20,195 bases of DNA from IMG/VR virus record IMGVR_UViG_2529293241_000014; one strand, 5' to 3'. Position 1 is the first letter of the stretch. Each line of letters begins with the position of its first letter. The translations under genes and the position numbers were made by a program. Source of the DNA: a virus (taxonomy: Duplodnaviria > Heunggongvirae > Uroviricota > Caudoviricetes). The notes under the pieces were generated by a model, which saw only the letters and a list, made by a program, of their open reading frames with translations, ran no database searches and was not told the origin of the DNA. Positions 453 through 20,195 of this stretch are shown one piece after another.

Positions 453-2183
453 TCAGGCTACCTCAACTCTCTTTTCAATAGGGTCAAGGTTTTTCATCCC
501 GCCAAGATCTTCTGCCACCTGTTTGAGCATTGACCTTGTTGATGGCGCATCAATTTTTGCACCTGCAGGCATCGCCTTTTCAACATTGCGATAAAGCTGG
601 TCGCTTCGTTTCATCAGCGCAGACATTCTTCCATTGACCGTATCAATAAACTTGTCGCTCATACCAAGAGCATCTTTTGCACCGGAAACGCGATCAATTA
701 TCTCACCCGCGCCCTGTGCTAGCTGCCTGATTGCTTCATTTTCCTGCACCTGTAGAGCAGAACCCGCACGGGACTTGATTGCTTGCTCAACTGCCTTGTA
801 TTGCTCGTTCCCGGAAAAGTGTGAAGGGAGTAATGAATCAACATTAAGCCTTTCAGCAGACTCCAGAACTTCAGCCTGAGGATTGATATCTAGTTCATCA
901 AGCGATGAAGCGAGATTTGGCCTTTTTTGTGCTGCTACTGTGCGAACGACTTCCTCTGGGTTCTTCGTCGCAGGCGTCATTGGTACACCTTGTGCTACTC
1001 TTGCCTCTGCGGCATGAACCGCAGGATTTGTTGCTGCAGCGGCATCACCGGAGAATGGTGATGTTTCTGTTGGCGCAGTGGTCGCTCTCTGTGCAGATGT
1101 TTTATTGCCACTAATTATATTTGATGCACCACGAACACCACGGGTAACGCCATTTATCAGGCCATGCGTAGCAATGCTAAGTCCGGCATTAATAGCGGCA
1201 TTTTCGGCAAAATCACCCCGTTGATTCGCCGCGTCAGCGAGAGAACCAATGACCATGTTTCCAGCTACACCTGCTCCAGGAACAAGATAACCGCCTATTG
1301 ACTCTCCAGCTTGCGCGTAGGGGTCTGTCGGTCTGTCTACTGGACGATAAACATCATCCAATACTTTTGGCCCCCCAAGCCCCTGACTGATTGCATTAAT
1401 CAGACTTGCGCCACCCTGCAATACGTCAAATGGTATGTTTACCAGACCACGACCAGCCTGTTCTGCAATTTGCCCTGCACTTTGACCACCAGTGAGCCAA
1501 TCGCCAGCTTGTTGCATCAATGATGGTTCTTCCCGTGTTGGTGCATTATTGGCCTGATTAACTGTTTGTTGCTGAACAGGTTTCGGTGCGACAGAACTTA
1601 CGGGTTGAGGTGGCTGCTGACTGGCTGCCTGCTGCTCAATCTGAGCAAATGGATTATTTGGGTCTGACTGCACACCTGATGCCGATACTTGTTCGGATGA
1701 CTGTACTTCCAGTTGTGCAAACGGGTTGTTAGGGTCTTGCTGAGGATGTACCTTTGCAGAGGTGGCGCGCTGTTCGACTGTTGAGTCTGTCACCGGGTCA
1801 CCAGCCCATTGAGCAAAGCGATCATCAACGTAACCGCGGCCTTCAGGTCCTGGCGTATATTCACCACGCTTTGCCTTCATAACGTTGCCGGGACCGTCGT
1901 GATAAGCCTGAAGAGAGTCACGCCAGTTACCAAACTGCTGGTACATCTTTGCCAGATAGCGCGCGCCAGCGTCAGCCTGATATTCGGGGTTTTGCATTTG
2001 CTCATCGGTATAACCCATATCACGCCATGTCCCAGGCATGACCTGAGTCAATCCTACAGCCCCGGCGGAGCTTACTGCGGCAGGGTTGTAAGAAGACTCC
2101 TTGGCACCCAGTGCAGTCATCAACCCTTCTGGCACACCGTAACGTGCGCCAGCCTGCTCTAACAAATCACGGTAATTAGCCAT
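453..2183 (-). CDS. Virion internal/ejection protein in the P22 gp16 position, with an N-terminal soluble lytic transglycosylase (SLT) domain
   Basis: 576-aa ORF, last gene of the structural operon, directly abutting the gp20-like gene. The N-terminus carries family-1 lytic transglycosylase motifs ([27 protein letters not shown]; AYHDGPGN). The central region is Q/P-rich with a tandem DPNNPFAQ repeat. Confidence 0.8.
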
Positions 2184-3515
2184 TTACTGCCCCAAAGATG
2201 GAAGATATCCGTAGCGATTAATGAAGTCGATTGACAGCTCGGGGTGCTGCTTCAGGTAATCTATAGAAGCCTGAGGCGCTTCCACTCGCTTGATACCGTT
2301 TTGCTGAACGTACTTACCAACCGCCTCATTACGCTTCTGGTTGAGCGTGTTCAGGATGACGCCAGCGTTGCGACGAAAGGACTCCTCGCTCTGCGAGTTC
2401 TGCAGCGAACCAACAGCCTGGTCGAGCTTTTTGCCCTCGGCATCAGAAAGTGCGCCCATGCCTCGCATGGCCTGAACCGCTGTCAGGTATGCTTGTGATT
2501 TAAAGGTATCAAGTCGTGCCTGAGTGTCTGCAGCCTGTGAGCCTGGAACGTTGGGGATTACTCCACGTAAGCCTGTAATGCTCTTAAGTGAAGGAGAACT
2601 AACGATATCGTTCAGAGTGAACATGCTGGTTGTGAGGGTGTTGATGCCGTCTTTGTAGCCATCATTTAGCGCTTGCTGCTTCTGCTGCAACTGCTGGTTG
2701 TTGGCTGCTATGCGGCTCTGTATTTCCTGGCGCTTCAGGTCGTTAGTTTCTGCTGATAGCATCCGGTCAAGGCGCTTATTTTCGTTGTTAATGCGGTTTG
2801 TTTCTGCGTCCAGATTAATGCGCTGCTGACCTAAATTCGCCTGGATATCTTGTCCGCGCATTGTGATTGCCTGATTCCGAGCGGCGGTTTGCGAATCCAG
2901 ATCCTGACCGCGCATGGTAACCTGGCGACCCTGCATTTTATCCTGTAGGTCAAAGTATTTTTCGGGCCCGAGACTGTTCATCCCCAGGTGATCGACAAAT
3001 TCGCCGAACTGCCGCGGGTTCTGTTGGTACATCTGAGCGACGTCATGAGGATTAACGCCAACACGAGCTAACTCACCGGCGTTGTTTTGCAGCCATGATT
3101 GCATTGCTTCTGGAGACGATGACGCAAGGCGTGCGCCAGCCGCTAAGGTGCCGATAGAATTACGCTGCTCTTCATCAATGAATCCCATGCCTTTACGAAC
3201 GGATTCAATCTGGTCTGGATATTGAGTAGCCAACTGACGCAAAGCACCGCGATCACCAGACGCATAAGCATTAGCGTACGCCTGCTGAAATTCTTTCTGC
3301 CGCTGAGCCTGCTTTTCCTGCTGAAAAACACCCGCAATACCTGAAAGACCTTGCAAAGCAGTCAGCCCAACATTGTTAGCGCCTGAACGCTCAATATCAT
3401 TGTTCTGCCTGATAAGCTGAAGCGTATTGCCGATGTCATTTACGCTCGGAGCGTTTGAGTTGACGCCGCCGATACCAGCCAACAATCCGCCGTTTGTTCC
3501 TTGCCAAGTAGCCAT
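2184..3515 (-). CDS. P22 gp20-like ejection (E) protein
   Basis: 443-aa ORF in the conserved position between the gp7-like and gp16-like genes. Q/N-rich coiled-coil-like composition typical of P22-like ejection proteins. Operon-packed, with stop adjacent to the next start. Confidence 0.8.
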   Translation of the reverse strand: MATWQGTNGGLLAGIGGVNSNAPSVNDIGNTLQLIRQNNDIERSGANNVGLTALQGLSGIAGVFQQEKQAQRQKEFQQAYANAYASGDRGALRQLATQYPDQIESVRKGMGFIDEEQRNSIGTLAAGARLASSSPEAMQSWLQNNAGELARVGVNPHDVAQMYQQNPRQFGEFVDHLGMNSLGPEKYFDLQDKMQGRQVTMRGQDLDSQTAARNQAITMRGQDIQANLGQQRINLDAETNRINNENKRLDRMLSAETNDLKRQEIQSRIAANNQQLQQKQQALNDGYKDGINTLTTSMFTLNDIVSSPSLKSITGLRGVIPNVPGSQAADTQARLDTFKSQAYLTAVQAMRGMGALSDAEGKKLDQAVGSLQNSQSEESFRRNAGVILNTLNQKRNEAVGKYVQQNGIKRVEAPQASIDYLKQHPELSIDFINRYGYLPSLGQ

Positions 3516-3524
3516 GATTCCCCC

Positions 3525-4217
3525 TTAAAACAACGAGCCAAGCAATCCGATACCAGCACCAATACCAGCGCCCCAAGGCGTTGATGTTCCCAAAAGGCTG
3601 GCAAGACCTGCACCGGCAATCGCACCAGACGTGCCACCGCTAATTGCAGTCTGAAGACTTGATGGTTTATTGGCATTAGCAGCGGCAAGAGCTGCGCTTT
3701 GCTGTGCAATGCTGCTCATGTTGTTGGCGTACGTCTGCCCGGCGTTTGCCTGACCTTGCAGCGCACCAAGCCCAACGTTTGCCAGATTGTTGTAATTGCT
3801 CATCTGATTTGATAACCAAGACTGACCGAGTGTCGGCGCGATCGTAGCCAGTTGATTGCTTGTGGCTGTCGAACCAAGTCCACCCGTCGCCTCCGCAGCA
3901 GCAAGACTCTGGTAACGCGCCTGCCCTGCAAGGTCTTTATACTGCTTAGAGTTGTAATACTGATTAAGTGCCTGCCCCTGACCTTCTAAACTGGAAAGGT
4001 TCTGAAGCTGGTTAACATACTGCTCCGCAAGAGGCGTGAACGGAGCAAGGTTTTTCATGATCGTCTGCCACTGCTGATTTTGCAGGTCTGCAGCATACTT
4101 CTGGGCTTCTGCTGCATACTTTGCGCTTTTATCAGAACTGCCACCTTTCCCGCCTTTTTCAGGGCAATAAGGTTCCTCGCCGCGCAGTTTTCTGCCCAGC
4201 TTAAATGCATATAACAT
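3525..4217 (-). CDS. P22 gp7-like ejection (E) protein
   Basis: 230-aa ORF; N-terminus MLYAFKLGRKLRGEEPYCPEKGGKGG... and a Gly/Ala-rich C-terminus resemble P22 gp7 as recalled. Conserved gene order. Confidence 0.8.
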   Translation of the reverse strand: MLYAFKLGRKLRGEEPYCPEKGGKGGSSDKSAKYAAEAQKYAADLQNQQWQTIMKNLAPFTPLAEQYVNQLQNLSSLEGQGQALNQYYNSKQYKDLAGQARYQSLAAAEATGGLGSTATSNQLATIAPTLGQSWLSNQMSNYNNLANVGLGALQGQANAGQTYANNMSSIAQQSAALAAANANKPSSLQTAISGGTSGAIAGAGLASLLGTSTPWGAGIGAGIGLLGSLF

Positions 4218-4219
4218 GG

Positions 4220-4678
4220 CTATCTCCCGTGATTCAGGAAGTCGATTAGTTCTTCGCGTGTGGCGCTGTAAAAAGTCACGTCATCCACGCCTTTGAAGTA
4301 TTTCTTGATGGTTCCTACACGCTTAAGGCCAATCATTGCGCAGTACATCTGACCGTGTCGGAATTTGCGTGCAGCGAACGATGTTACGCACTGAACGGTG
4401 GTGTTAGTCAGAATGTATCGCCAGAACGCCAGCCCAATTTCCTTGCTGAAGCCGCGAATCTCTGGCAGGTACATGGCGTGGCAATCTAATGTCAGCGGCT
4501 GAATCTCCTGATAGTAAACAATGCCGCCAAACTGACCGTGCACGTTCACCTCAAAGTAACGGCATTCAGGTTTGTAGTCGTATCCATCACCGTTGTTGCT
4601 CCCGGCGATAATGTCAGGGTGATTTCCGACTGCTTCTATCAGGTCGATGTTTCGCGTTGGTTTGAATGTAATCATCAC
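4220..4678 (-). CDS. P22 gp14-like virion assembly protein
   Basis: 152-aa ORF immediately downstream of the tail needle gene with an ATGA start/stop overlap. Position and size match the gp14 slot of P22-like phages; the sequence-level match is from memory only. Confidence 0.65.
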
Positions 4679-5523
4679 TGCTCCGCGATTATCTTGATGG
4701 TTGTGGCAGTAAACGCCGCACCATTCGACTGAATGGTTAACGTACTGCCATTTGTGGCAAGAAAGCCGTCTTTATCCACGCTGAAGAACGTAGCTAACAG
4801 GATGTTGTCGGTTGTTGTCGCCGCATTACGACTGCTGACCAGTGTGTCAGGAACAGAGCCGGAAAAGGTTAGCTGCATTGACCTGTTGGCGGTTCCGCTG
4901 GGCCACGTGCCGACAATCGACAACTTGAAGAGCAGGGTTTTGTTCTCGTTGAACACAACCATCTTGTTGTTAACGGTGTCGAAGAATGGTGCCAACGAGC
5001 CGGATGACGGTGTGAGCGTTTTCAGCAGGCTAACAAGGTTGGTCGGCGCTGTCGGGATGGTTACAGATACACCAGAGTAAACAACCTCTGACTTCTTGCG
5101 TGTGGTTGCATACTCCAGAGCATCGATGCGCGTTTCATGGTCTGAAACCTGCGACTCCAGCGACTGAACTCTTGTGTCAAGCGACGAAATATCGCTTTCA
5201 TTCTGAGCTATTCGTGTTTCATGGTCCTGAAGAGTTGATTCTGCCTGTCTGATTCGCTCCTCATGATTAACAAGCGTTGCTTCCGCAGCAGAAATTCGCT
5301 GCTCATGGTCAGCGAGAATCACATCCTGCTCATCGTTCCTGACCTGTGCATCATAAGCGCCCTGTCCGGCCTCGTTGGCTTTGTTAGCCACGTTACCAAC
5401 ATCAGTGCCCTGTGCGATAACGTAAAGCAGATACGACTGCGAGAAGATATTGCGTGGAAGGACTGATGTATCGAGCCGCGTAGCTTGGATGATTACCGGC
5501 ACATTGAGATTCGAATCAGCCAT
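4675..5523 (-). CDS. Tail needle (P22 gp26 family) with C-terminal knob domain (Sf6/HK620 type)
   Basis: 282-aa ORF. N-terminus [43 protein letters not shown] is the conserved gp26 N-terminal domain. It is followed by four DHExRI-like coiled-coil repeats and about 140 aa of non-coiled C-terminal domain, unlike the 233-aa knobless P22 needle. Confidence 0.85.
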
Positions 5524-6941
5524 TACTCAATCCTTATCTGAGCGCCAGACAGAGTGACAGGTGACTTCGTGATAACGCGCAATTTGAAGCCGACATTTTT
5601 CCTGATGCGCCCTACTCGCTTCCACAAAACACGCTTGTCGTAAACGAACGGTTCATTCTGCTCAATCATCTGCTCACGCCCGTAATTGATGCAGTCAGTG
5701 GTTGCAGAGAGAAAAAGGCGGTCGGCGTACTGCGCAACGCCAGTTGACGATTCAACCTCAAGGTCGAACACTCTGGCGTTATCCGCTTTGAAGAGTGGAG
5801 TAAACAGCAGGTGTTCCTGTTGCTTGTCGTACTGGCTGCTGATATCGAATTGCAGTTTCCCGGTAACAGATTCCAGCTTATCGCCGCACGTTATCTGATT
5901 GCCTTCGTAAACGAAGTCGATAGCGCGGTACACATCGTCATACAGACCTGTTTTCAGCACACACCATTGTGGGCCATTGGCGATTGAAGATGCGTCGTAC
6001 ACGAGGACGTGACGCGGAAGGTGGATAATCAGCAACTCATGAGCATCAAATCGCAGCGATTCCATCACACCATCAGCCAGTTCATCAGCAGTGTAGGAGC
6101 GGAGGATTTTCTCAATGCTCGCGCTGGCAATTGGTGACACCTGACCGGAGTCGATGATATACACAGACGGCGCACCCGTTGCCGGATTGCTGATAAACGC
6201 ATACGAATCAGCGAATGGCGTTTTGCAGTAAGTTCCGGCAATGCCTTTCTGCACCATCAGCGATGGTTGTGCAACATACAAAGCGGCACCAACGGTGGTT
6301 GCGCCAGTCAGGGAGAAATATTCAATAGTCGATGAACCAAAGCAGACGATGAAGTCTCGCCATGTCCCGATACCGATGATGCCGTCAGGCTGAGACTCGG
6401 CACGATATTGTGCGCTGTAACGGTCAGGATGAGATTCGTCTTCAAGGTCAGTGATAAACCATGAATCAGTTCCGTCTTTTGACCACGCATAACGCCCACG
6501 TAAGCGCGTAATGTCGCGAACTGAACCTAACTCATACTGAGTGAATCCACTGTCTGTAGGCCAGTTTGAGACGGTTTTGACCGTGCCATCATAGCGATAC
6601 TCGACCAGTTGACCATTAACGCCTACCGCCTGTGATGTCCGACCATGCGCCATTGATACACGACCACTTCCGGCAACATCACCGACTTCACTTTCTCCTT
6701 TGTACAGCTTGCCGCCACACACGCGATAAACAGCATTCTGCGCCATGTTGTACTCGACGCCGCGAGATACACCGTTCACGTCAGAACGTTTGGCAATGCC
6801 CGGGAATGAGCGAAGATATCCGCTGCTGTTCAGGATTTCTTTGGGTGTAGCCAGCATATTCACTGGCAGATAGTCGATATAGTCGGCGTTTCGGAAGTCT
6901 TTGCCGACACCTTTCATAAGCGGAAGTTGCTGAATAGGCAT
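5523..6941 (-). CDS. P22 gp10-like tail accessory (hub) protein
   Basis: 472-aa ORF, the same length as P22 gp10, in the conserved position between the gp4-like and needle genes. Confidence 0.85.
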
Positions 6942-7441
6942 TATTCGCTCCCGTTATCGCAAGGTTCCTTTCGGTGGAAGTAATTCCAACCATTCCACTT
7001 CGCCAACTGGTTACCACTACCAACAGGCATACGGTTTGGATAACCGGACTTACATTTAGCTGCTTTTGCCCTGTCCATTGCAGACAGTTTGACGAGTCGC
7101 TCTTTCCCGTATCTGGCAGTGGTTATAAGTTTTGCAGACGCTTCCAGCGCATAATCTGGAGCAATTCGGCAGGCAAGGTTGAAAATGACGGCATTGATAG
7201 CGTTATTTGATAAACCGTGCTCATCGCCCGGATCCGGAGCAACATCTGCATCAGCAAAAATGTAGCCAACGTTGATACCAGGTGACGCATCACCGCCAAG
7301 CCATTCAGCCATCATCATTTCAAGGTCGTTGACGCCGTCTTCCATAGACTGCGGTTCGACATCGGTTAACGTGGCATTTGATGCAACACCGAGCTTACGT
7401 AATGCCGCAAGAACTAAATCACCCTTCGTTGTCAGGTTCAT
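6941..7441 (-). CDS. P22 gp4-like tail adaptor/head-completion protein
   Basis: The track ORF runs to 7510, but the sequence from the internal Met ([33 protein letters not shown]...) aligns with the P22 gp4 N-terminus as recalled and gives 166 aa. The start at 7441 is therefore preferred. Confidence 0.8.
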
Positions 7442-7649
7442 CTGCTGCCGCCTTAGGTTTTCGACCAGGCTTTTTACGCTGTTTTTCTTCTGGCTCTGGC
7501 TCTGCAACATCCTTCAAAAGGTCATCAGGATGTGAAAACCAGCCAGCATCCAGATATTCCTGAAGCTCTTCGGCTTTCACGATTTCAAAGTCGTAGCCAA
7601 CGCCTTTCCACTTCTTCATGTCGCCATGACGAAAGATCATGTGTGTCAT
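7419..7649 (-). CDS. Small hypothetical virion-module protein (76 aa) between coat and gp4-like genes
   Basis: ORF from ATG at 7649 (GGAGA RBS 5 nt upstream) reading [38 protein letters not shown]..., with a charged tail [28 protein letters not shown]22 has no gene here; Sf6-type phages have a small gene 6 in this slot. Confidence 0.5.
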
Positions 7650-7693
7650 GCTTGTCTCCAGATAAAAACGGGAGCCGAAGCTCCCTCTGGTTA

Positions 7694-8989
7694 TCACGCG
7701 GTCTGGTTAGGCAGACCAACACCAATTGCCTCTGGTCGTACAGCACATGCTGAATACCACACAGCAATACGGCACTTACCAGACAGAGTGTTGATATCAC
7801 CCTGCGTTGCGAAGATGCCGTTAACACCAATACCTGGAATGCTGAAGGAAGACGTTTTCATGCCAGCAAACAGTTCATGGGTTACCGGGATCGGCTGAGA
7901 CAGCAGGCGGATTGAGTCATCAGCCCAGAACACGTTAGCGGTGGTTGTTGCCACGTTCAGAACGTTTACCGGAGTGGTATCAGCAAGAGAGGTGTTTACG
8001 TTAGCGTAAGCCTTCTCTTCTTTTGTCAGTGACGCGTCATCCAGCGCAATCGGCTTCGGCGTGATTTCGATGTGAGTACCATCGATCACACGGGTGATTG
8101 AGAAAGTCGCGTCATCAGTCAGCACATTCTTCGCCATCTGAGACAGGAACTTCACACCAATGAAGCTGATTTTGTCGCCGCGCTTAAATCCGGTGGTGGA
8201 GGATACGGTCACCGTTGCAACACGGTTGTCGACGTTCTCTTTGTTACCATCGGTATCAAGGGTGTATGCCTGCGGCTTAAACTTCTGCGCACCAGAAACA
8301 GTTACACCAGTCGCGGTTGACTTGGTAACTGCCGGAAGTTTCGGTGAGCGAAGAATTTCATCAAAGCCAGCAATCTGACGCTGAATAGTACCGTTTCGAT
8401 ATGCTTCTTCAGGAACGCGCCCGAAGATGTCACCATCTACCAGGTTGCGGCCTGCTTTGCGGTAATCGTCAGGGTTCAGGAAGTAACTGATGCCCATGTC
8501 GCGGTTTAGCTCACGGGAGAACATCAGTCGCTCTGCATCAGACACAAAATCCCAGCCAGGCAGGCCAGTCGATGGACCAATTGCGCGGGTATCGTGAACA
8601 ACAAGCGAGCCCATTTCAGTTGCCTGTTTGGCAATCGCTGACTCAATGTTATTCGCCAGTTTTTTGGCGGATGCCTGGATGCGGCGACGGTAAGAACGCT
8701 CATCACGCAGGTCATCTGCACGAAGCTCGAAGAAATCGTTATCCGGATCGCCCATGTTGCACTTCACGGAGAGTTCCAGAATCCCGGTTGCGTTGCCAGT
8801 TAAATCCCAGCCAGTCTGGGTTGGCGCTTCCTGCTCAACAGGCATCCACACGGTGTTGCTTGAACGCTGCATGGATTCTGCCGGAGGGGGGTATTTTGTC
8901 ACTTTTGACGCCATTGGCGTCAGGTTCTGGACGGTTCCGATGATTTCATCCAGAGCATACGTGACCAGTTGACCTTCATTTAATGCCAT
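7694..8989 (-). CDS. Major capsid (coat) protein, P22 gp5 family
   Basis: 431-aa [23 protein letters not shown]... ending ...[14 protein letters not shown]; collinear with P22 coat protein (430 aa) along its length as recalled. Confidence 0.95.
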
Positions 8990-9900
8990 TATCGAATTCC
9001 TTTATTCAGTTGCGCCTTGAGCTTGCGGTACGTCTCTACATCCCCTTTGTTTGCTGCCGCCTCCATCTGCTTTTCAATCGCAGAGATATTTGCAGCAACA
9101 GCATGTCCCTGAATGGGTTCATCAGGTAACGGGGCTTCTGAAACAGGCTTGGCTCGAGGCTTGAGAGTTAAACGTTCTGACAGTCGAGTGAGTTCAATCA
9201 GCGCGGATTGCCCGTCCATCGCCAGCAACTGGCGTGTTTTCTCAGGATTAGCACCAAGGTGATACATGAGAGCGGCGGATTTCTCCGGGAAGAGGCGCAT
9301 GATGTCGGCACCGACTGCTGGCGGCACCAGTTGCATGAATGCATCCTCTTTCTCCTGATAGTCAGGGATATTGAGCTTTTCCGCTGCCTCGTAGTGCTTA
9401 CGGGCCGCCTCGACGTATTGCGCTGATTGCTGGGTGAACTCCTGAGTTTTGCGACCCTGCTCGGCGACAGCCTGGCTTCGTGCGTCCATAGCCTTGATCT
9501 GCCATTCACTGTTTGCCTGCTGGAAGGCAGCCAGTGCGCGGCTCTGGTCATAGTCGTACTTAGCCAGTGCATCTTCGGAAAGATAATCGTTAGGGTCTGG
9601 TTGTTTTGGTAACTCAGGGTTCACCCGCAGGTGCTCCGGCAACTCTCCACGCTTAACCGCTTCCATCTGCTGCTCAAGCTCACGCTGGCGTTTGCGTTCG
9701 ATGCGGCGACGGGCAAATTCAGCATTAGTTGCCGGGTCTTGTTTTGGTTTCTCATCGTCTTTCCGGACAATCTCAAAGCCTTCTTCCTGACCTGCGCTGT
9801 CGTTGGCATTATCGACAACTAAGCCATCAGCAGATGCCGCTGCATGATTGCCGGGCAGGGTTAATTCTTCAGAAGCCTGAATGTCGGTGGTTTGGTCCAT
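8989..9900 (-). CDS. Scaffolding protein, P22 gp8 family
   Basis: 303-aa ORF, the same length as P22 gp8. Conserved blocks include [30 protein letters not shown] and the C-terminal coat-binding helix-turn-helix [19 protein letters not shown]. Confidence 0.92.
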
Positions 9901-9913
9901 GATTAACTCTCTC

Positions 9914-12079
9914 TTATTGAGGTGTCTCGGCTACTCCGCCGGAGGGGATTTGAACTTGACGCATAAGATTCGCGAAATCCATGCGTTGTGAATGAGTCTG
10001 GTCTGCATCTTTAAGAAGCAGCTCAGCGTTAGCACGAGCATCTTTGCTGCGCTGTTGCTGGAATTGACCTACGAGCCTGAGGTACTCACGCAGTTCTGCC
10101 TGCTTGTCGAGGTCCATATTGTTGAATATTTCTGCAATCTTCGCGGCGTTGAGTTGGTTTTGGGCTTCAACCTTGGCAGCTTCAACCTGAATCTGCGCCT
10201 GTTGGTTCTCTGCCTTGAGCAATTCAGCCTGACCTTGCAGAAGGATACCCTGCGCCTGAATTTGCTCTGCTGATGGCTGCTGCGGCTGTTGTTGTGCCTG
10301 CTGCACCATCTCCATCTCTTCAGGTGTTTCTGGTTTCTTCAGCCCCATCATCACCAGTTGCTTGTTCGCGTACTCTCGCATCATCTCGACGCCTTTACCG
10401 TCAAGCAGCGTGAAGTATTGCAGCATCAGCATCTGGAACTCTGGAGTACCTTGCGGAACCTTGGTGAGCAACTCCTGAATCTCTGCGCGGTTCTGTTCCT
10501 TCATACTCTGGAAGGATGGCCCAACGTCTGTATAGCACTCATATCGACCGCGAATGTCGTTGAGTGTGACCACATTGCCGGACTGGTAATCGACAACTTG
10601 CGCATAGAGTTGAACGTCTTTCTCGCTTCCATCTTCAAGTGTCAGCGTTACATGACGAGGAACGTCATAAATATCGTTGACCATTGAGGCATAAATCTCG
10701 CCATCACGTCGCATTGCGGTAGCCAGGTTATCCTGAAACACGTATGTCTCAAGGTCTGCCCGCATGTTCAGTTGATTGACGGTATCAAAAGCGACCTGAC
10801 CATTTGCCGCCTGCGCATCCACGCCAAGACTAGCCACTTCTTTCACTGCGTTGGTGGCAGCCTCAAGCATGTAAGCGTTGGCTTGCGGCACTTCAGGGTT
10901 TTCCATGTAGGAGATTGGACCAATCGGCAGGTCGTTACCGTTTTCATCAGTCCTGTTCTGCAGATAGTACGGATAGTCATCATTTCCGCCGTACATGTAT
11001 TCGTAGCCTTCGATTTGCTCAGGGAAGAAGGTCGGTTTCTTCTTCGGTGACCGAGCAACAATATCGGCGTTGAACGACATAATCATGTTACGAAGGCGTT
11101 GACCGTCTTTCGTCAGCCTTACCACACCCTCGTAGCACTCCTTGTCACCAGCGAATGACCATTCGCCATACACTGGAACGATTGGAATATGCTCTCCGGC
11201 TATCTTCTCGCGGTCTTTCAGTATCTGCGTACAGGTGATGATCGACTTATACACACGCCGACGCTTCACCTTGCGCTCTGCTACCTTAATGAATCCACGA
11301 TTAGCCAGGTCGTCGATGACGTCTTTGATATCCTGCTGGTAATAGCTGACCGGCTCACCTGTCAGCGGGTCGCGGTAGATGAAGACCTTCTCCTTCTCCT
11401 CTTCTACCTCGTAATACTCAGCGACGTAGACGACATCATTCGACACCCACGGGAATAGCCATGTATCGTTAGGATTCTGGAAAGATGGCAGGGTATCCGG
11501 GTCAATACCGTAATCCTCTGCGAACTCTTTCCAGCCATTGCGCGACAAGGCGTTAATCACCGTGCAGTGCTTAGCGTCGCTCTTATCCATCTGCTTGCTG
11601 TTGGCGTCCCATATGACGTGTGAGCAGGCTTCATGGATTGGCAGGCGTCGGATTACCTGATTGTTGCTTGTTGGATCGTTGTCTTCGTACTGCGTGACCA
11701 GACGCCATGCACCAACGCCTGACTCTATCTGCTCACGAACGCCAACGTTAACGGCAATCTTTGCCGTGTTATGGCGCATATCAGTACGATACATCCCCAT
11801 CAATACATCGGCTGCATCAGGATTAGCGCCGTCTTTGGGTCGGAAGAGAACGTCGACAGGGTTCCGGCGCATCTCTGCGACCAGTTTCCTGACCTCCGGG
11901 CGAACAACATCGAATTGTCCGCGATATTGCAGGGTAGTGTAGTTTGATAGCCAGTCATCCCATTGCGACACTCGGCTAAAATACAGGTCATTTGTCGCCT
12001 CGGTTCTGGCTTCATCGCTCGCCATCCAGTCTGCGTCAAACTTACACAGAATGGAATTGAGTCTGTTTTCGTCGGCCAT
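9914..12079 (-). CDS. Portal protein, P22 gp1 family
   Basis: 721-aa [21 protein letters not shown]...; long collinear similarity to the P22 portal, including the Q-rich C-terminal barrel region ending SGGVAETPQ. Confidence 0.95.
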
Positions 12080-13120
12080 TTAAGTTCTCCGTGCGATGGG
12101 CCTGATTGGGGCTGGTATCTTTTTCTCTTTTGGTTTTTTGATGTCGCGCATCATTTTTGCGAAGCGGCGCATCATGTATGCATAGCGAACGGCGGATAGC
12201 ACGTCGTCGTTAAGCTTGACGATTTTCCCGTTTTCATCACGGTGATAGAGGCGGAACTCCTCAAAGAATGGCTCACAGGTATTGAATACTTTGAAGCGAC
12301 CATCGAGCATCATGTCGCGCAATTCAGTGATGCCTGGCTCAACAGCGTTACCGCCATCAGGCCATGTCGCATGCTCCTGCAACATCATAAATCCAGCGTC
12401 TGCATACTGCCCTTTGAGCTGCTCACCGCCGCCCTTCTCGTGCTGGTTTCCATCATGAGGCCATGCGGTTGGCACTTTATGCGCCCATGATTTAACGGCT
12501 CCCCACGCCTGAACGGCTGTTTTTTCTTTCGCCTTCCACACGCGTGAAACGTAGATTGTGTCTGCCTCCTTATCCCACCAAAGCTGAACTTGCGCCTGTG
12601 GGTGATCCCATCCGAAATCCATCCCGCCAATTACGTAGAAGTGATCAGGACACTCGAACGGCTGACACTTAATCGTCTCTTCCGGTATCTGGAAGATTCG
12701 ACCACTACCCATCGTAGGAATACCGCGAGCACGCGCCTCTCTCTCATGCTCGGGATATGATGCGATGATTTGCTCTTTCTGCTCGTCGGTATAGTGCTCA
12801 GCGTCATAGATGGTCATGTTGACCACTTTCTGCGACTTGCTGGGGTTCTTCAGGAACTTGGTAACAACGTCAGACATCCCCATCAGCGGGGTAAACGTCA
12901 GAATTGAGAATTGCCCGTATTTGTTGGTACGGGTAAGACCTTCGCCATAAATGCTGTATGGTGGCTCTTCGTCAAACCACACGCCGTGGATTGTGTCACC
13001 CTGCCAGCGAGCACGGCCTTGCGAGTATGGCTTGAAGTAGCAGATTGAAATGCCATCTTCAACGCCATCAGCCGTGTGATGCTTAACCAGAAGGTGATCA
13101 ACAAGGTTCGGAAAGAAAGG
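12080..13120 (-). pseudogene. Large terminase subunit, 5'-truncated by IS911 (3' about 346 codons retained)
   Basis: The minus-strand frame is open from the IS911 end at 13120 through the stop at 12080. The retained part begins ...PFFPNLVDHLLVKHH..., includes a Walker-B-like VWFDEEP and the C-terminal nuclease region (GGMDFGWDHP...). No Walker A or start codon is present; the frame runs straight into the IS911 IRL. Confidence 0.85.
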
Positions 13121-13192
13121 TGAAGTGGCACACTGAATTTGGCCACCTGAACAGAGGTGATATGCTCACCTCAGAACAACACAGGTGCTCCA

Positions 13193-14361
<1,169 letters not shown>

Positions 14362-14369
14362 CCACTTCA

Positions 14370-14765
14370 AATACACTGAGCGATTACGCTGTATTGGTCC
14401 CTGAGAGACTTGAGGCAATCTTGGACCGAGCCGCTCAACGCGCAGGTCATGAGGATATTAGTGAGCTATTGGGCTGCACTGTATGCAGCTATGCGGGCGA
14501 TGATACAGGTATCTATCTCCTGCCTAAGCGGTTCGCTTCTATCTCTTTCAGGTCAACTAAAGACGCTAAGACGGTAGATGTCAAAGTGACCCGAAATAGT
14601 AACACTGCTGGGTATGACCTTGAGTTAATCAGTGTGGTCGATGTGTTGGCTACTGGTTCCGTTAAGGTGAAAGCAGGTGAGTTTGACGTTGAGAAAGACG
14701 CCTCTTTCCCGTTGATACATGTTATTCGGTTTACTACCCCCAGAGTAACTATAAACCCTGAGTGA
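14370..14765 (+). pseudogene. Orphan 3' fragment (about 132 codons) of an unknown gene, fused to the IS911 copy 1 IRR
   Basis: The frame is open from inside the IS through to the TGA at 14763-14765 and contains no ATG. Protein-like composition (...LGCTVCSYAGDDTGIYLLPKRF...KVTRNSNTAGYDLELISVVDVLATGSVKVKAGEFDVEKD...). I do not recognise the family. Confidence 0.35.
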
Positions 14766-14782
14766 ACATAAGGAGTACATCC

Positions 14783-14854
14783 ATGAGCTTACAGGAGTTG
14801 TTTGAGCTCGTCCTCTGTGTCCACTTGGTCTGCCAGATGCTCTACAGGGAGTGA
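14783..14854 (+). CDS. Candidate 23-aa small ORF (MSLQELFELVLCVHLVCQMLYRE)
   Basis: ATG at 14783 lies 7 nt after a consensus AAGGAG (14770-14775), immediately downstream of the fragment's stop. The product is short and hydrophobic. Support is RBS geometry only. Confidence 0.2.
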   Translation: MSLQELFELVLCVHLVCQMLYRE

Positions 14855-15287
14855 TAGATAATAACAATCAGCAGTATGCCCGCAATAGCTATTGCTCTGG
14901 TGCTTACAGGTCTTCACTTTGCGGTCGGTGGGGGCTAGTGGCGGTAGGTTATGACCTTGTATTAAAAAAATCTCACAAAAATCTCTGTAGGTATCTAATA
15001 GACAAAGGTCGGTGCCTCTCCCCCCTTGGCCCCTTTCAAGTCTGGACGATTGGGGCCACTGTCTTAAAGTTAGGACTTCGGTTACTCGTTCCAGAGTCAC
15101 GAGAGGACTTGACCAGAGATAAATTAATGTGTAACCATAACTGTAACCACAAGGATTCATCATCCTTTAGGAAGCAAATGGTTAGCGGCTGATTATCTTC
15201 GATACCTCGATTCCCGCTGCCCGCTCCAGTTAGAGTCTTTCAGTCTGCGATGATGGGAAATCCCGGAGTGACTGAAAGACGTTTAAG

Positions 15288-15359
15288 TTATGAATGATCG
15301 CTTTTTTTGCAAAATTGCTGTGCAGAAATACTAACCTTCGGGCAGGCGATCATTCATAA
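15288..15359 (+). promoter_or_regulatory. Perfect 14-bp inverted repeat (TTATGAATGATCGC ... GCGATCATTCATAA) with 44-nt spacer, upstream of the lysis cassette
   Basis: Arms at 15288-15301 and 15346-15359 are exact reverse complements. The spacer contains TTGCAA-N16-TACTAA, a weak sigma70-like pair. The position fits the late-promoter/leader region of a lambdoid late operon. Confidence 0.4.
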
Positions 15360-15433
15360 GCACTCTGCTTTTATTCCGATTAACTGTGGGTGGTTTGTTG
15401 GATAGAGTGCTTCCCTTACTGTATATATCGTTT

Positions 15434-15459
15434 CGCCCGCTTTTGCGGGTTTTTCTTTT
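15434..15459 (+). terminator. Rho-independent terminator-like hairpin (candidate tR'-like site), 60 nt upstream of the holin
   Basis: CGCCCGC-TTTT-GCGGGT followed by TTTTCTTTT: GC-rich stem, 4-nt loop and a U-run on the plus strand. Confidence 0.55.
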
Positions 15460-15519
15460 CAAATCCCTTTCATTTCTCAGTGTAAAACTACGCCATCCGT
15501 TATTTGCGGAGGTGAGGCT

Positions 15520-15735
15520 ATGAAATCCATGGACAAAATTTCAACGGGCATTGCCTACGGCACCTCCTCAGGCAGTGCTGGCTACTGGTTTTTACAGTGG
15601 CTTGATCAGGTCAGTCCGTCACAGTGGGCTGCGATTGGTGTACTGGGGAGTCTGGTTCTGGGCTTCCTGACTTATCTGACAAATCTGTACTTCAAAATCA
15701 GAGAAGACAAGCGTAAGGCTGCACGGGGAGAGTAA
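15520..15735 (+). CDS. S: Pinholin, phage 21 S21 type (class II holin with dual-start MKSM motif)
   Basis: 71 aa, [71 protein letters not shown]; near-identical to S21 as recalled. GGAGG RBS at 15507-15511. Met1/Met4 dual start is consistent with holin/antiholin products. Confidence 0.95.
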
Positions 15736-15739
15736 TTCA

Positions 15740-16054
15740 ATGACACAAAAATATGAACTGATTGTGAAAGGGATCCGCAATTTTGAGAATAAAGTTACGG
15801 TAACTTTAGCGTTACGGGACAAAAAACGCTTTGACGGTGAAATTTTTGACCTGGACATCTCGCTGGACCGTGTTGAAGGTGCCGCGCTGGAGTTTTATGA
15901 GGCAGCAGCCAGAAGGAGCATCAGACAGGTCTTCCTGGATGTTGCTGCCGGGTTATGTGAAGGGGACGAGCTGTTGCCAGAAACGCGCCCCTGTTCAGAG
16001 GCGCGGTATACCATAAAAATTAACAGTTCTGATAACTCGATTACGGGTTGTTAG
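15740..16054 (+). CDS. Conserved hypothetical protein of lambdoid lysis cassettes (YdfR-like; DUF1327 by recollection)
   Basis: 104-aa ORF starting 5 nt after the holin stop and ending 55 nt before the endolysin start. The same holin-ORF-endolysin arrangement is recalled from the E. coli K-12 Qin prophage (essQ-ydfR-rrrQ). Hydrophilic, no TM segment. Confidence 0.75.
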   Translation: MTQKYELIVKGIRNFENKVTVTLALRDKKRFDGEIFDLDISLDRVEGAALEFYEAAARRSIRQVFLDVAAGLCEGDELLPETRPCSEARYTIKINSSDNSITGC

Positions 16055-16109
16055 CTTTTTGCAGTTAGCTTTCCAGTATCTTTCATTGGTAGCATCCTGA
16101 TAAATATCC

Positions 16110-16643
16110 ATGAGCGCAAAAATCAAATACGGCCTGTCAGCTGCTGTTCTGGCGCTGATTGCTGCAGGCGCGTCTGCTCCTCAAATACTTGACCAGTTTC
16201 TGGATGAAAAAGAGGGTAACCACACTACGGCATACCGCGATGGTTCCGGTATATGGACCATCTGTCGTGGTGCCACAATGGTGGATGGTAAGCCCGTCAT
16301 ACCGGGAATGAAGCTGTCGAAGGAAAAATGCGACCAGGTTAACGCTATTGAACGTGATAAGGCGCTGGCATGGGTGGAGCGCAATATTAAAGTACCACTG
16401 ACCGAACCACAGAAAGCGGGTATAGCGTCATTTTGTCCCTATAACATTGGCCCAGGTAAGTGTTTCCCGTCGACGTTTTATAAGCGGCTGAATGCCGGTG
16501 ATCGTAAGGGCGCATGCGAGGCGATTCGCTGGTGGATAAAAGATGGTGGGCGCGATTGCCGCATACGTTCAAATAACTGCTATGGACAGGTTATTCGTCG
16601 TGACCAGGAAAGCGCATTAGCCTGTTGGGGGATAGATCAGTGA
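16110..16643 (+). CDS. R: SAR (signal-anchor-release) endolysin, T4-lysozyme-like muramidase
   Basis: 177 aa with a weakly hydrophobic Ala/Gly-rich N-terminal segment (YGLSAAVLALIAAGASAP) and the catalytic E-8aa-D-5aa-T triad (EGNHTTAYRDGSGIWT). Pairs naturally with a pinholin. Confidence 0.9.
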   Translation: MSAKIKYGLSAAVLALIAAGASAPQILDQFLDEKEGNHTTAYRDGSGIWTICRGATMVDGKPVIPGMKLSKEKCDQVNAIERDKALAWVERNIKVPLTEPQKAGIASFCPYNIGPGKCFPSTFYKRLNAGDRKGACEAIRWWIKDGGRDCRIRSNNCYGQVIRRDQESALACWGIDQ

Positions 16644-16648
16644 GCTGA

Positions 16649-17107
16649 GTCGCCGCGATTATTTATGCTCTGGTTATCTGCATCATCGTCTGCCTGTCGT
16701 GGGCGGTCAATCATTACCGTGATAACGCCATCGCCTACAAAGAACAGCGTGATAAAAAAGTCAGTGAGCTGAAGCTGGCGACCGCCACCATTACTGACAT
16801 GCAGCAACGCCAGCGTGCTGCTGATGTACTCGATGCTAAATACACGAAGGAGTTGGCTGATGCGAAAGCTGAAAATGATGCTCTTCGGCGCAAGCTTGAT
16901 AATGGTGGCCGGGTGCTCGTCAAAGGAAAATGCTCTGTGCCATCCTCAGCCGAAACCTCCAGCGCCTCCGGCATGGGCAATGATGCCACCGTCGAACTCT
17001 CTCCAGTTGCTGGACGAAACGTTCTCGGTATCCGGGACGGAATCATCAGAGACCAGACAGCACTGAGAACGCTTCAGGAATATATCAGGACGCAATGCCT
17101 TCGATGA
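16649..17107 (+). CDS. Rz: Rz-like i-spanin (lambda Rz family); canonical start disrupted, start uncertain
   Basis: Frame encodes (V)[35 protein letters not shown]...[20 protein letters not shown]...TQCLR, collinear with lambda Rz. The lambda-type start overlapping the endolysin stop reads GTG AGC TGA (16640-16648), an in-frame stop at codon 3. The next in-frame ATG is at 16799, downstream of the TM segment. Confidence 0.6.
16860..17066 (+). CDS. Rz1: Rz1-like o-spanin (outer-membrane lipoprotein) embedded in the +1 frame of Rz
   Basis: [46 protein letters not shown]...: signal peptide, VAGC lipobox and proline-rich mature part, fully nested inside Rz as in lambda. Confidence 0.75.
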
Positions 17108-17281
17108 TAGAGATAATTTTACTCATCATCCTTCACATCTGGCTCTGTAGACAGGGTGGTGATCACTTCTGGAGTGAATCCAGATTAAACATCTCATTGC
17201 TGATGCTTAAAGTTGAGCATTTGGCGCGCGGTAAGGGGCTGCGTTTAGATAAGAGCCAGTCATCACAAACACCAGGATTTA

Positions 17282-17304
17282 GCCTCGCATTCGCGGGGCT
17301 TTTT
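17282..17304 (+). terminator. Rho-independent terminator downstream of Rz/Rz1
   Basis: GCCTCGC-ATTC-GCGGGGC followed by TTTTT: 7-bp GC-rich stem with one G-U pair, 4-nt loop and U-tract, 175 nt after the Rz stop. Confidence 0.7.
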
Positions 17305-17331
17305 ATTGCAACAAAGGTAAAGATGAAGTGG

Positions 17332-18500
<1,169 letters not shown>

Positions 18501-18577
18501 TGGAGCACCTGTGTTGTTCTGAGGTGAGCATATCACCTCTGTTCAGGTGGCCAAATTCAGTGTGCCACTTCAAGACG

Positions 18578-18865
18578 ATGGATGAAGAATATCGTAAAGA
18601 CCTGCAACTGTGGTTTGGTCTTACGCATGCGTCGTTCTGCGTGATGCCGCGAGTATTCATGGAGGCTATGCCTCCAGAATGGCAAGAGAAGATGGCTCAG
18701 TTGCTTTTTGAGTATAGCGACACGATCAAAACGGATGTCTGCGGAGTTCACAGCTGTTTTGTTACTGCCAAAGACGGCAACAACCGCTTTATGAGGATGC
18801 CAGAAGATATTCTGAACTATCGTCATCCTCGACGTGAATTCATCGAATCATTTCTGAAGAAGTAG
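18578..18865 (+). CDS. Hypothetical phage protein (95 aa) downstream of the lysis cassette
   Basis: ATG at 18578 begins MDEEYRKDLQLWFGLTHASFCVMPRVFMEAMPPEWQEKMAQLLFEYSDTIKTDVCGVHSCFVTAKDGNNRFMRMPEDILNYRHPRREFIESFLKK. Same orientation as the lysis genes. Its likely native RBS (AAAGG at 17314-17318) is now separated from the ATG by the IS911 copy 2 insertion. Confidence 0.5.
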   Translation: MDEEYRKDLQLWFGLTHASFCVMPRVFMEAMPPEWQEKMAQLLFEYSDTIKTDVCGVHSCFVTAKDGNNRFMRMPEDILNYRHPRREFIESFLKK

Positions 18866-18921
18866 CCATTACAAAGCCTATCTACGGGTGGGTTTGATAA
18901 TGGCTTATACTGGATTTGCCC

Positions 18922-19827
18922 CTATATTTCCAGACATCTGTTATCACTTAACCCATTACAAGCCCGCTGCCGCAGATATTCCCGTGGCGAGCGATAACCC
19001 AGCGCACTATGCGGATGCCATTCGTTATAATGCTCGAACGCCTCTGCAAGGTTCTTTGCTGCCGTTAACCCGTCTGGTTTGGGCATGATACTGATGTAGT
19101 CACGCTTTATCGTTTTCACGAAGCTCTCTGCTATTCCGTTACTCTCCGGACTCCGCACCGCCGTGTTCTTCGGTTCAAGTCCCAACATCCGGGCGAACTG
19201 GCGTGTTTCATTAGCCCGGTAGCATGAACCATTATCCGTCAGCCACTCCACTGGAGACGACGGAAGATCGTTGCCGAAGCGGCGTTCCACCGCTCCCAGC
19301 ATGACGTCCTGTACTGTTTCACTGTTGAAGCCGCCGGTAGTCCCCGCCCAGTGCAGTGCCTCACGATCACAGCAGTCCAGCGCGAACGTGACACGCAGTC
19401 TCTCTCCGTTATCACAGCAGAACTCGAACCCGTCAGAGCACCATCGCTGATTGCTTTCTTTCACGGCCACTCTGCCTGTATGTGCCCGTTTCGATGGCGG
19501 TACAGCAGGTTTTCGCTCAAGCAACAGCGCATTCTGGCGCATGAGCCGGTAAACACGTTTGGCATTGATCGCAGGCATACCATCAAGTTCTGCCTGTCTG
19601 CGAAGCAGCGCCCATACCCGACGATAACCATACGTGGGCAGCTCTCCGATAACATGGTGTATACGGAGAAGCACATCCGTATCATCAGTGTGACGACTGC
19701 GGCGGCCATCCATCCAGTCATCGGTTCGTCTGAGAATGACGTGCAACTGCGCACGCGACACCCGGAGACAACGGCTGACTAAGCTTACTCCCCATCCCCG
19801 GGCAATAAGGGCGCGTGCGCTATCCAC
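18922..19827 (-). CDS. insD: IS2 InsD (OrfB, DDE transposase domain)
   Basis: 301-aa [41 protein letters not shown]... matching IS2 InsD as recalled; overlaps the 3' end of insC as in IS2. Confidence 0.95.
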
Positions 19828-20150
19828 TTTTTTGCCCGTCCATATTCAACGGCTTCTTTGAGGAGTTCATTTTTCATCGTTTTCTTGCCGAGCAGGCGCT
19901 GGAGTTCTTTAATCTGCTTCATGGCGGCAGCAAGTTCAGAGGCAGGAACAACCTGTTCTCCGGCGGCCACAGCAGTAAGACTTCCTTCCTGGTATTGCTT
20001 ACGCCAGAGAAATAACTGGCTGGCTGCTACACCATGTTGCCGGGCAACGAGGGAGACCGTCATCCCCGGTTCAAAGCTCTGCTGAACAATTGCGATCTTT
20101 TCCTGTGTGGTACGCCGTCTGCGTTTCTCCGGCCCTAAGACATCAATAAT
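19785..20150 (-). CDS. insC: IS2 InsC (OrfA) with the initiator codon position reading ATT instead of ATG
   Basis: Protein [55 protein letters not shown]... is IS2 InsC. The codon at 20148-20150 (plus strand AAT) gives ATT where canonical IS2 has ATG, by my recollection. An E-to-K difference (KTMKNELL) is also present. Confidence 0.8.
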
Positions 20151-20195
20151 CTGTTCTCCAATGACAAGTCTAAAAACTAGTATTAAGACTATCAC

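Follow-up and report, generated by a model that had tools for sequence, protein, structure and literature searches.

Does a lysis cassette still deliver an i-spanin when its Rz gene carries a stop at the third codon, or is such an Rz a pseudogene next to an intact Rz1? The question is raised by 20,195 nucleotides of a virus of the Caudoviricetes (IMG/VR record IMGVR_UViG_2529293241_000014); we refer to this whole stretch as the window. An earlier note, made from the letters without database searches, had reported a TGA at codon 3 of Rz beside an intact nested Rz1, and had offered two explanations: a very recent pseudogene, or non-canonical initiation or reinitiation after the endolysin stop. 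The cassette contains the following features.

15435-15450, plus strand: terminator-like GC hairpin with a T run, located some 70 nt before the holin gene, in a tR'-like position
15520-15735, plus strand: holin, 71 aa, Pfam Phage_holin_2_1, intact
15740-16054, plus strand: gene of the DUF1327/YdfR family, located between holin and endolysin as in phages mEp460 and PhiR47_1
16110-16643, plus strand: endolysin, 177 aa, glycoside hydrolase 24 (Phage_lysozyme), intact in the window
16640-17107, plus strand: Rz i-spanin, putative pseudogene, 155 codons, GTG start over the endolysin stop
16646-16648, plus strand: premature TGA at Rz codon 3, through A to T at 16646; AGA (Arg) in relatives
16799-17107, plus strand: 102-aa remnant ORF from the first canonical in-frame ATG, without membrane anchor and without Shine-Dalgarno (SD) sequence; KGA00732.1 (Shigella flexneri)
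16860-17066, plus strand: Rz1 o-spanin lipoprotein gene, 68 aa, intact, in the +1 frame of Rz; Pfam PF06085, E 3.7e-21

The Rz start codon GTG (16640-16642) overlaps the endolysin stop TGA (16641-16643) in the sequence GTGA, the endolysin ending in GAT CAG TGA. From 16640 the Rz codons are GTG AGC TGA GTC GCC GCG ATT ATT TAT GCT CTG. Read through the TGA, the frame runs for its complete 155 codons with the hydrophobic N-terminal segment present, and it matches Pfam Phage_lysis (PF03245) with an E-value of 1.3e-28 over profile positions 1-125 of 126. The anchor, as judged by inspection, is in frame with the periplasmic domain, its codons 4-23 aligning to lambda residues 4-23. The gene lies directly 3' of the endolysin, with Rz1 embedded in the +1 frame. 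Homology, anchor, and position are those of an Rz gene; an uninterrupted ORF from a usable start is missing.

A scan of in-frame codons found no ATG, GTG, or TTG between the TGA and 16799. The first canonical in-frame start after the stop is the ATG at 16799, which is codon 54 and lies 159 nt downstream of the GTG; the first AUG past the TGA, at 16665, is out of frame. Near-starts in frame within this interval are ATT at 16658, 16661, and 16790, CTG at 16670, 16694, 16769, and 16775, and ATC at 16676, 16682, 16685, and 16730. The sequence and the ORF list thus agree with the earlier note on the TGA beside an intact nested Rz1, on the transmembrane and periplasmic parts remaining in frame, and on the lack of a canonical start before 16799.

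Rz1 has an SD sequence (AAGGAG, -8.3 kcal/mol), a signal peptide with a VAGC lipobox, and a proline-rich motif, and so shows the features expected of the Rz1 family. Judged by its architecture, the locus is a lambda-type embedded Rz/Rz1 pair with all features of that family except the Rz ORF, that is, a presumptive Rz pseudogene with an intact Rz1.

To what does the stop trace back? Over 16600-17110 the closest deposited phages are PhiR47_1 (PV340566; 99.4% identical) and mEp460 (NC_019716; 99.2%), and in both Rz is annotated as intact from the same GTG, overlapping the lysozyme stop. Codon 3 is AGA in PhiR47_1, in mEp460, and in lambda; the 5' sequence of lambda Rz given in the earlier note (ATG AGC AGA GTC ACC GCG ATT) is correct. 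In the alignment, the window and PhiR47_1 differ at three of 511 positions. The first difference is the A to T change at 16646, which turns AGA into TGA at Rz codon 3. The third, T to C at 16909, is synonymous in Rz and replaces V with A in the Rz1 signal peptide. The second is a substitution linked to the stop.

16776-16776, plus strand: A to T, CAG to CTG, Q46L in Rz; found solely alongside the T allele

Relative to PhiR47_1, Rz has therefore acquired only two changes besides the stop. The reconstructed intact Rz of 155 aa with L46 had no exact match in a collection of 15 billion proteins. The Rz stop is thus a single derived substitution, AGA to TGA. Stop codons result from 52 of the 1,386 possible single-base changes in the Rz gene (3.75%), and the chance of at least one nonsense change among three is about 0.11. 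For a single-base difference, whether it exceeds what chance would produce is beside the point; because the chance is not small, neutral decay suffices to account for the stop.

A change of one base only could be a sequencing or assembly error in the window. However, five S. flexneri genomes that were assembled independently of one another have the identical base, as do eight metagenome contigs from several runs, and protein records on 56 and 17 contigs (described below) reflect the T. An error at 16646 is barely conceivable against these data, and we rejected it on the strength of the five assemblies and the several metagenome runs.

How widespread is the T allele? The Rz junction was found in 1,031 of 5,426 complete Escherichia coli genomes (at least 80% coverage). 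We searched for the T allele by megablast with a 45-base query centered on the T, which can match solely through a 28-mer containing the T. The allele was absent from all 5,426 complete E. coli genomes and from 50,697 phage records. An exact scan of the GTDB representatives (one genome per bacterial species) did not find it, nor did a search of IMG/VR with a degenerate pattern covering the lambda type and the type of Rz described here. Among the junction copies listed for a pattern allowing A or T, the base was A in at least 120 viral copies (all those listed) and in 66 of 66 metagenome contigs, 186 copies in all. These searches, together with the A in all 186 listed copies, rule out a widespread or phage-borne T allele; an intact phage carrying GTG AGC TGA was found neither among the 50,697 phage records nor in IMG/VR. 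Among the matches listed, the Rz ORF spans 145-155 codons in 161 of the 167 copies that were long enough and is shorter in six (about 3.6%), which suggests that Rz occasionally decays in other copies too.

In S. flexneri, TGA is present in all five assemblies that keep the 5' end of Rz: CP026765.1 (L203), CP026788.1 (L204), UAUS01000007.1 (L206), CP026768.1 (L209), and GCA_000183785.2 (L210). The T allele is thus restricted to the S. flexneri lineage and fixed there. The alignment over 16600-17110 with Rz of lambda and related phages, by which the earlier note had hoped to learn whether the TGA is lineage-specific, shows AGA in the relatives; in the collections searched, TGA is confined to S. 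flexneri.

The window itself belongs to this lineage. Positions 2080-20195 are 100% identical to S. flexneri GCA_000183785.2 over 18,116 nt and 99.994% identical to CP026788.1. The truncated terminase encoded in the window, which we used to retrieve the S. flexneri chromosomes for comparison, matches AAN41877.1 and other S. flexneri proteins exactly, and Rz1 is identical in sequence to AAP15756.1 of S. flexneri 2a 2457T.

Searching for exact copies of the 102-aa remnant, we obtained about 20 short gut-metagenome contigs, and eight of the ten listed carry TGA and the linked CTG. Three of the T-allele contigs show 100% identity with the window over a stretch that reaches from the holin region into the downstream insertion sequence. 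All T-allele contigs match the window exactly from 16455 across the IS911 junction, the few mismatches being clustered upstream of this part; several look like chimeric assemblies with a resident E. coli prophage upstream of 16455. The T-allele contigs come from several runs and carry either the ENA study number PRJEB14847 or the assembly label COST17-2, which presumably denotes the same study. PRJEB14847 is Phase III of Costea et al. 2017, whose spike-in held an unintended Escherichia/Shigella contaminant that was re-profiled as Shigella flexneri (PMC6739870). The PRJEB14847/COST17-2 contigs probably derive from this contaminant. We rejected these contigs as a sign of a circulating phage, given their exact identity to the window, including the IS911 junction, and the contaminated spike-in.

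A Logan contig, ERR3965041_5439, differs from these contigs: its codon 3 is AGA, and a run of six A (aligned to 16755-16760) is one A shorter, which gives the same 102-aa remnant. The missing A reflects either a frameshift that arose independently or a homopolymer error; the contig also lacks one G in a nearby G-run.

What is left of the prophage around the cassette? A P22-like morphogenesis module lies on the minus strand and encodes portal, scaffold, coat, gp10, and ejection proteins. Its head and ejection genes are open in the window (portal, 721 aa; scaffold, 303 aa; coat, 431 aa; gp10, 472 aa; and others). Between the module and the cassette, and beyond the cassette, are the following features.

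12080-12982, minus strand: truncated large terminase, 300 of about 499 aa; the first approximately 100 positions of the N-terminal Pfam domain are missing
13121-14369, plus strand: IS911, left copy; cuts the terminase and joins its remnant to the cassette side, without target duplication (AGG vs AAT)
17324-18572, minus strand: IS911, right copy; inverted, 100% identical to the left copy, 217 nt past Rz, with a 3-bp target duplication (AGA)

We saw no gene for a small terminase in the window, and an IS2 extends from about 18890 to the window's end. The lysis cassette runs opposite to the structural genes across the left IS911; in comparison, in a typical P22-like prophage Q, holin, endolysin, Rz, terS, terL, and portal all point in one direction. 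A simple inversion of the cassette via the two inverted IS911 copies was rejected for the right copy. Its AGA duplication is intact and marks a simple insertion, and phage HF4s as well as S. flexneri L203, L206, and L209 have an uninterrupted sequence without the IS at this position. The lack of a target duplication at the left copy would fit an older rearrangement, and an older inversion involving this copy is likely.

To the left of the cassette, the segment from 14370 to 15206 (837 nt), between the IS911 and the phage-homologous part and likewise opposite in orientation to the structural genes, has no match in the phage collection. It has full-length matches with about 90% identity in two of the 5,426 E. 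coli genomes, where it is the 3' part of a gene for a 373-aa hypothetical protein beside an integrase; the ORF at 14355-14765 is a remnant of that gene. There is no gene for a Q antiterminator in the window, and the possibility of a Q gene upstream of the cassette was rejected, as the DNA at 14370-15206 is left over from the 3' part of an unrelated mobile-element gene. The hairpin at 15435-15450 may play the role of tR'. A sharp mosaic boundary is located at 15207, where homology begins to PhiR47_1, to 689R4-like phages, and to one contig of the PRJEB14847/COST17-2 type (L004). In PhiR47_1 and the 689R4-like phages, a tRNA-Gly is annotated beneath the match that starts at 15207. ARAGORN finds no tRNA in the window, and with ARAGORN and Rfam we found no tRNA or other RNA gene near the cassette.

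On the right side, an ORF of 100 aa (17095-17397, plus strand) overlaps the Rz stop and extends into the IS911. Its exact product was found only in PRJEB14847 contigs, and it is a chimeric frame made by the IS911 insertion. A 95-aa gene (18578-18865, plus strand) follows Rz in phage HF4s; here the IS911 lies between the two, inserted 5 nt upstream of the ATG of this gene.

The region occurs in three structural states in S. flexneri, all of which share one IS911 end. In the first state, that of the window, the full cassette is present. In the second (L203, L206, and L209), the IS911 end is joined to position 16251 within the endolysin; holin, DUF1327 gene, and the N-terminus of the endolysin are lost, and no IS is found downstream of Rz. 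In the third, seen in strain 301 (AE005674.2) and three further genomes, the IS911 end directly abuts the AGA site past Rz, and the entire cassette is lost. The AGA is thus the insertion site of the second IS911 in the lineage of the window and the endpoint of the deletion in the strains of the third state, which suggests either a target hot spot of IS911 or intramolecular transposition. Portal and injection protein are split or shortened in L203, L206, and L209, and in L203 the coat protein is shortened as well.

TGA is found in both the first and the second state, and the stop therefore predates the IS911 events that separated those strains. Of the earlier note's "very recent pseudogene", the pseudogene part stands; "very recent" has to be softened for a TGA that is fixed in five of five S. 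flexneri assemblies and shared by two structural variants, even if the gene has hardly changed since.

The locus combines a derived lesion, restriction to one lineage, intact relatives, and disrupted neighbors, as expected for a lineage-specific pseudogene in a defective prophage. We consider it very probable that Rz is a pseudogene in an S. flexneri lambdoid/P22-like prophage remnant, created by the single A to T change at 16646 and most simply explained by neutral decay. Some points speak against a pseudogene. The rest of the frame is unchanged but for one non-synonymous and one synonymous substitution, and from this a loss of constraint would not be apparent. Furthermore, holin, endolysin, and Rz1 are intact in the window.

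What would ribosomes do at this start? The SD sequence of the native GTG is GGGGGA (-8.4 kcal/mol), and in-frame ATT codons follow 10-13 nt past the Rz stop. At these, 16658 and 16661, the SD interaction amounts to -2.5 to -2.8 kcal/mol, and across all near-cognate candidates to -2 to -3.6. Ribosomes would load at the native GTG, with its good SD sequence and its coupling to the endolysin stop, and would terminate after two codons. The membrane-anchored i-spanin would hence not be made in meaningful amounts, and the allele would be null or near-null, with a trace of anchored Rz conceivable through UGA read-through or ATT reinitiation. Lambda mutants with nonsense codons at sites throughout the periplasmic domain of Rz are defective in lysis, and when either spanin subunit is defective, lysis is blocked and spherical, unlysed cells are left (PMC5295617). 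Because the spanin needs both subunits, Rz1 would be insufficient alone: it could not disrupt the outer membrane, and it would be intact by chance, not yet having been struck. The prophage itself is unable to package DNA, with its terminase cut by IS911, and the cassette is severed by IS911 from any Q antiterminator. We infer that functional Rz is not made and that the substitution was neutral.

Alternatively, a useful i-spanin might still be made, either by initiation or reinitiation at the ATT codons 16658 or 16661, following the endolysin stop or the two-codon mini-ORF, or by reading the UGA as Trp. The complete transmembrane segment and periplasmic domain in frame, the ATT codons so close behind the stop, and the accumulation of just two further substitutions are all compatible with this alternative, and UGA is the leakiest stop codon in enterobacteria. 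Public Shigella records also annotate the gene from one of the ATT codons.

16658-17107, plus strand: 149-aa CDS in public Shigella records, ATT start; gene calls in L203, L204, L206, L209, and L210, mapped exactly on L204

The 149-aa product is listed as "lysis protein [Shigella flexneri]" or "MULTISPECIES [Shigella]" on 56 contigs, and the 102-aa remnant product, from an older record, on 17; all 17 and 56 contigs are named Shigella. The ATT call follows from the permissive choice of start codons in translation table 11 and is no proof that the codon is used; it is an annotation choice and not data in favor of expression. ATT is a poor initiator against which IF3 discriminates, and the SD sequence at the two ATT codons is weak compared to that of the native GTG. 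An Rz starting there would also lack Arg3, the sole positive charge that the anchor has on its cytoplasmic side. Programmed recoding of the UGA, as selenocysteine or by regulated read-through, has two findings against it: 14370-17323 contains no Rfam match to an RNA element up to E=1, and the UGA occurs in no phage record, IMG/VR contig, or complete E. coli genome searched. Finally, a prophage that does not package DNA offers no selective reason for a spanin, and sister strains have deleted the cassette. Useful Rz expression is therefore improbable. It is very unlikely that an i-spanin, either shortened through reinitiation at the ATT that follows the stop by 10 nt or carrying Trp through UGA read-through, continues to be made in S. 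flexneri. If it were, non-canonical initiation, coupled to the endolysin stop, would be maintaining trace expression of a lysis gene in nature. Of the two explanations put forward in the earlier note, the derived AGA to TGA change and the defective prophage favor the pseudogene; the weak SD sequences and the lack of an Rfam match weigh against non-canonical initiation or reinitiation.

The stop might also have been selected in the host, disarming the last lysis step of a cryptic cassette. The T allele is fixed, being present in each of the S. flexneri copies that we examined, and Shigella genomes lose many functions. However, clonal descent predicts fixation equally, and the neutral chance of a nonsense change calculated above does not call for selection. 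Once holin and endolysin act, loss of the spanin does not rescue the cell, and both genes are intact in the window; moreover, a cassette without a Q gene is probably silent anyway. Selection for the stop is accordingly a very unlikely cause.

For Rz as a probable pseudogene, the biological weight is small: it would be another decaying gene in a Shigella prophage remnant. Prophage genes inactivated in single lineages are ordinary in the IS-rich genomes of Shigella, and the S. flexneri sequences have been public for years. The locus matters in two practical respects. The records with an ATT start mask the stop, and surveys based on homology would consequently score the spanin as intact. The T allele is also a clean lineage marker, through which short contigs in a much-reused fecal-metagenome benchmark were traced to a Shigella contaminant.

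Compared to known systems, the locus is closest to the Rz genes of PhiR47_1 and mEp460, with which it shares the GTG start, the order of the cassette, and Rz1. Both are complete, isolated, viable lambdoid phages, and their Rz genes differ from the one described here at codon 3, which is AGA, and at codon 46, which is CAG. Lambda has the same succession of holin, endolysin, and Rz, with Rz1 nested in the +1 frame and the Rz start over the endolysin stop. The Rz frame here shares 60% identity with lambda Rz, the two periplasmic cysteines being aligned, and Rz1 is 45% identical to its lambda counterpart, with the lipobox cysteine and the proline-rich motif aligned. In contrast to lambda, codon 3 is TGA instead of AGA, which breaks the i-spanin ORF, the start codon is GTG instead of ATG, and Rz1 has 68 instead of 60 aa. 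Holin (Pfam Phage_holin_2_1) and endolysin are also of a different type, and a DUF1327 gene lies between them; the N-terminus of the endolysin is presumably signal-anchor-like, unlike that of lambda. A further parallel is rzpR of the Rac prophage in E. coli K-12, annotated as a pseudogene: in this defective prophage, too, an Rz homologue is inactivated, whereas the annotation retains an embedded or adjacent gene of the Rz1 type. Prophage and lesion are not those of Rac, however: here, a single nonsense codon lies at the very start of Rz, and the remainder of the gene is pristine.
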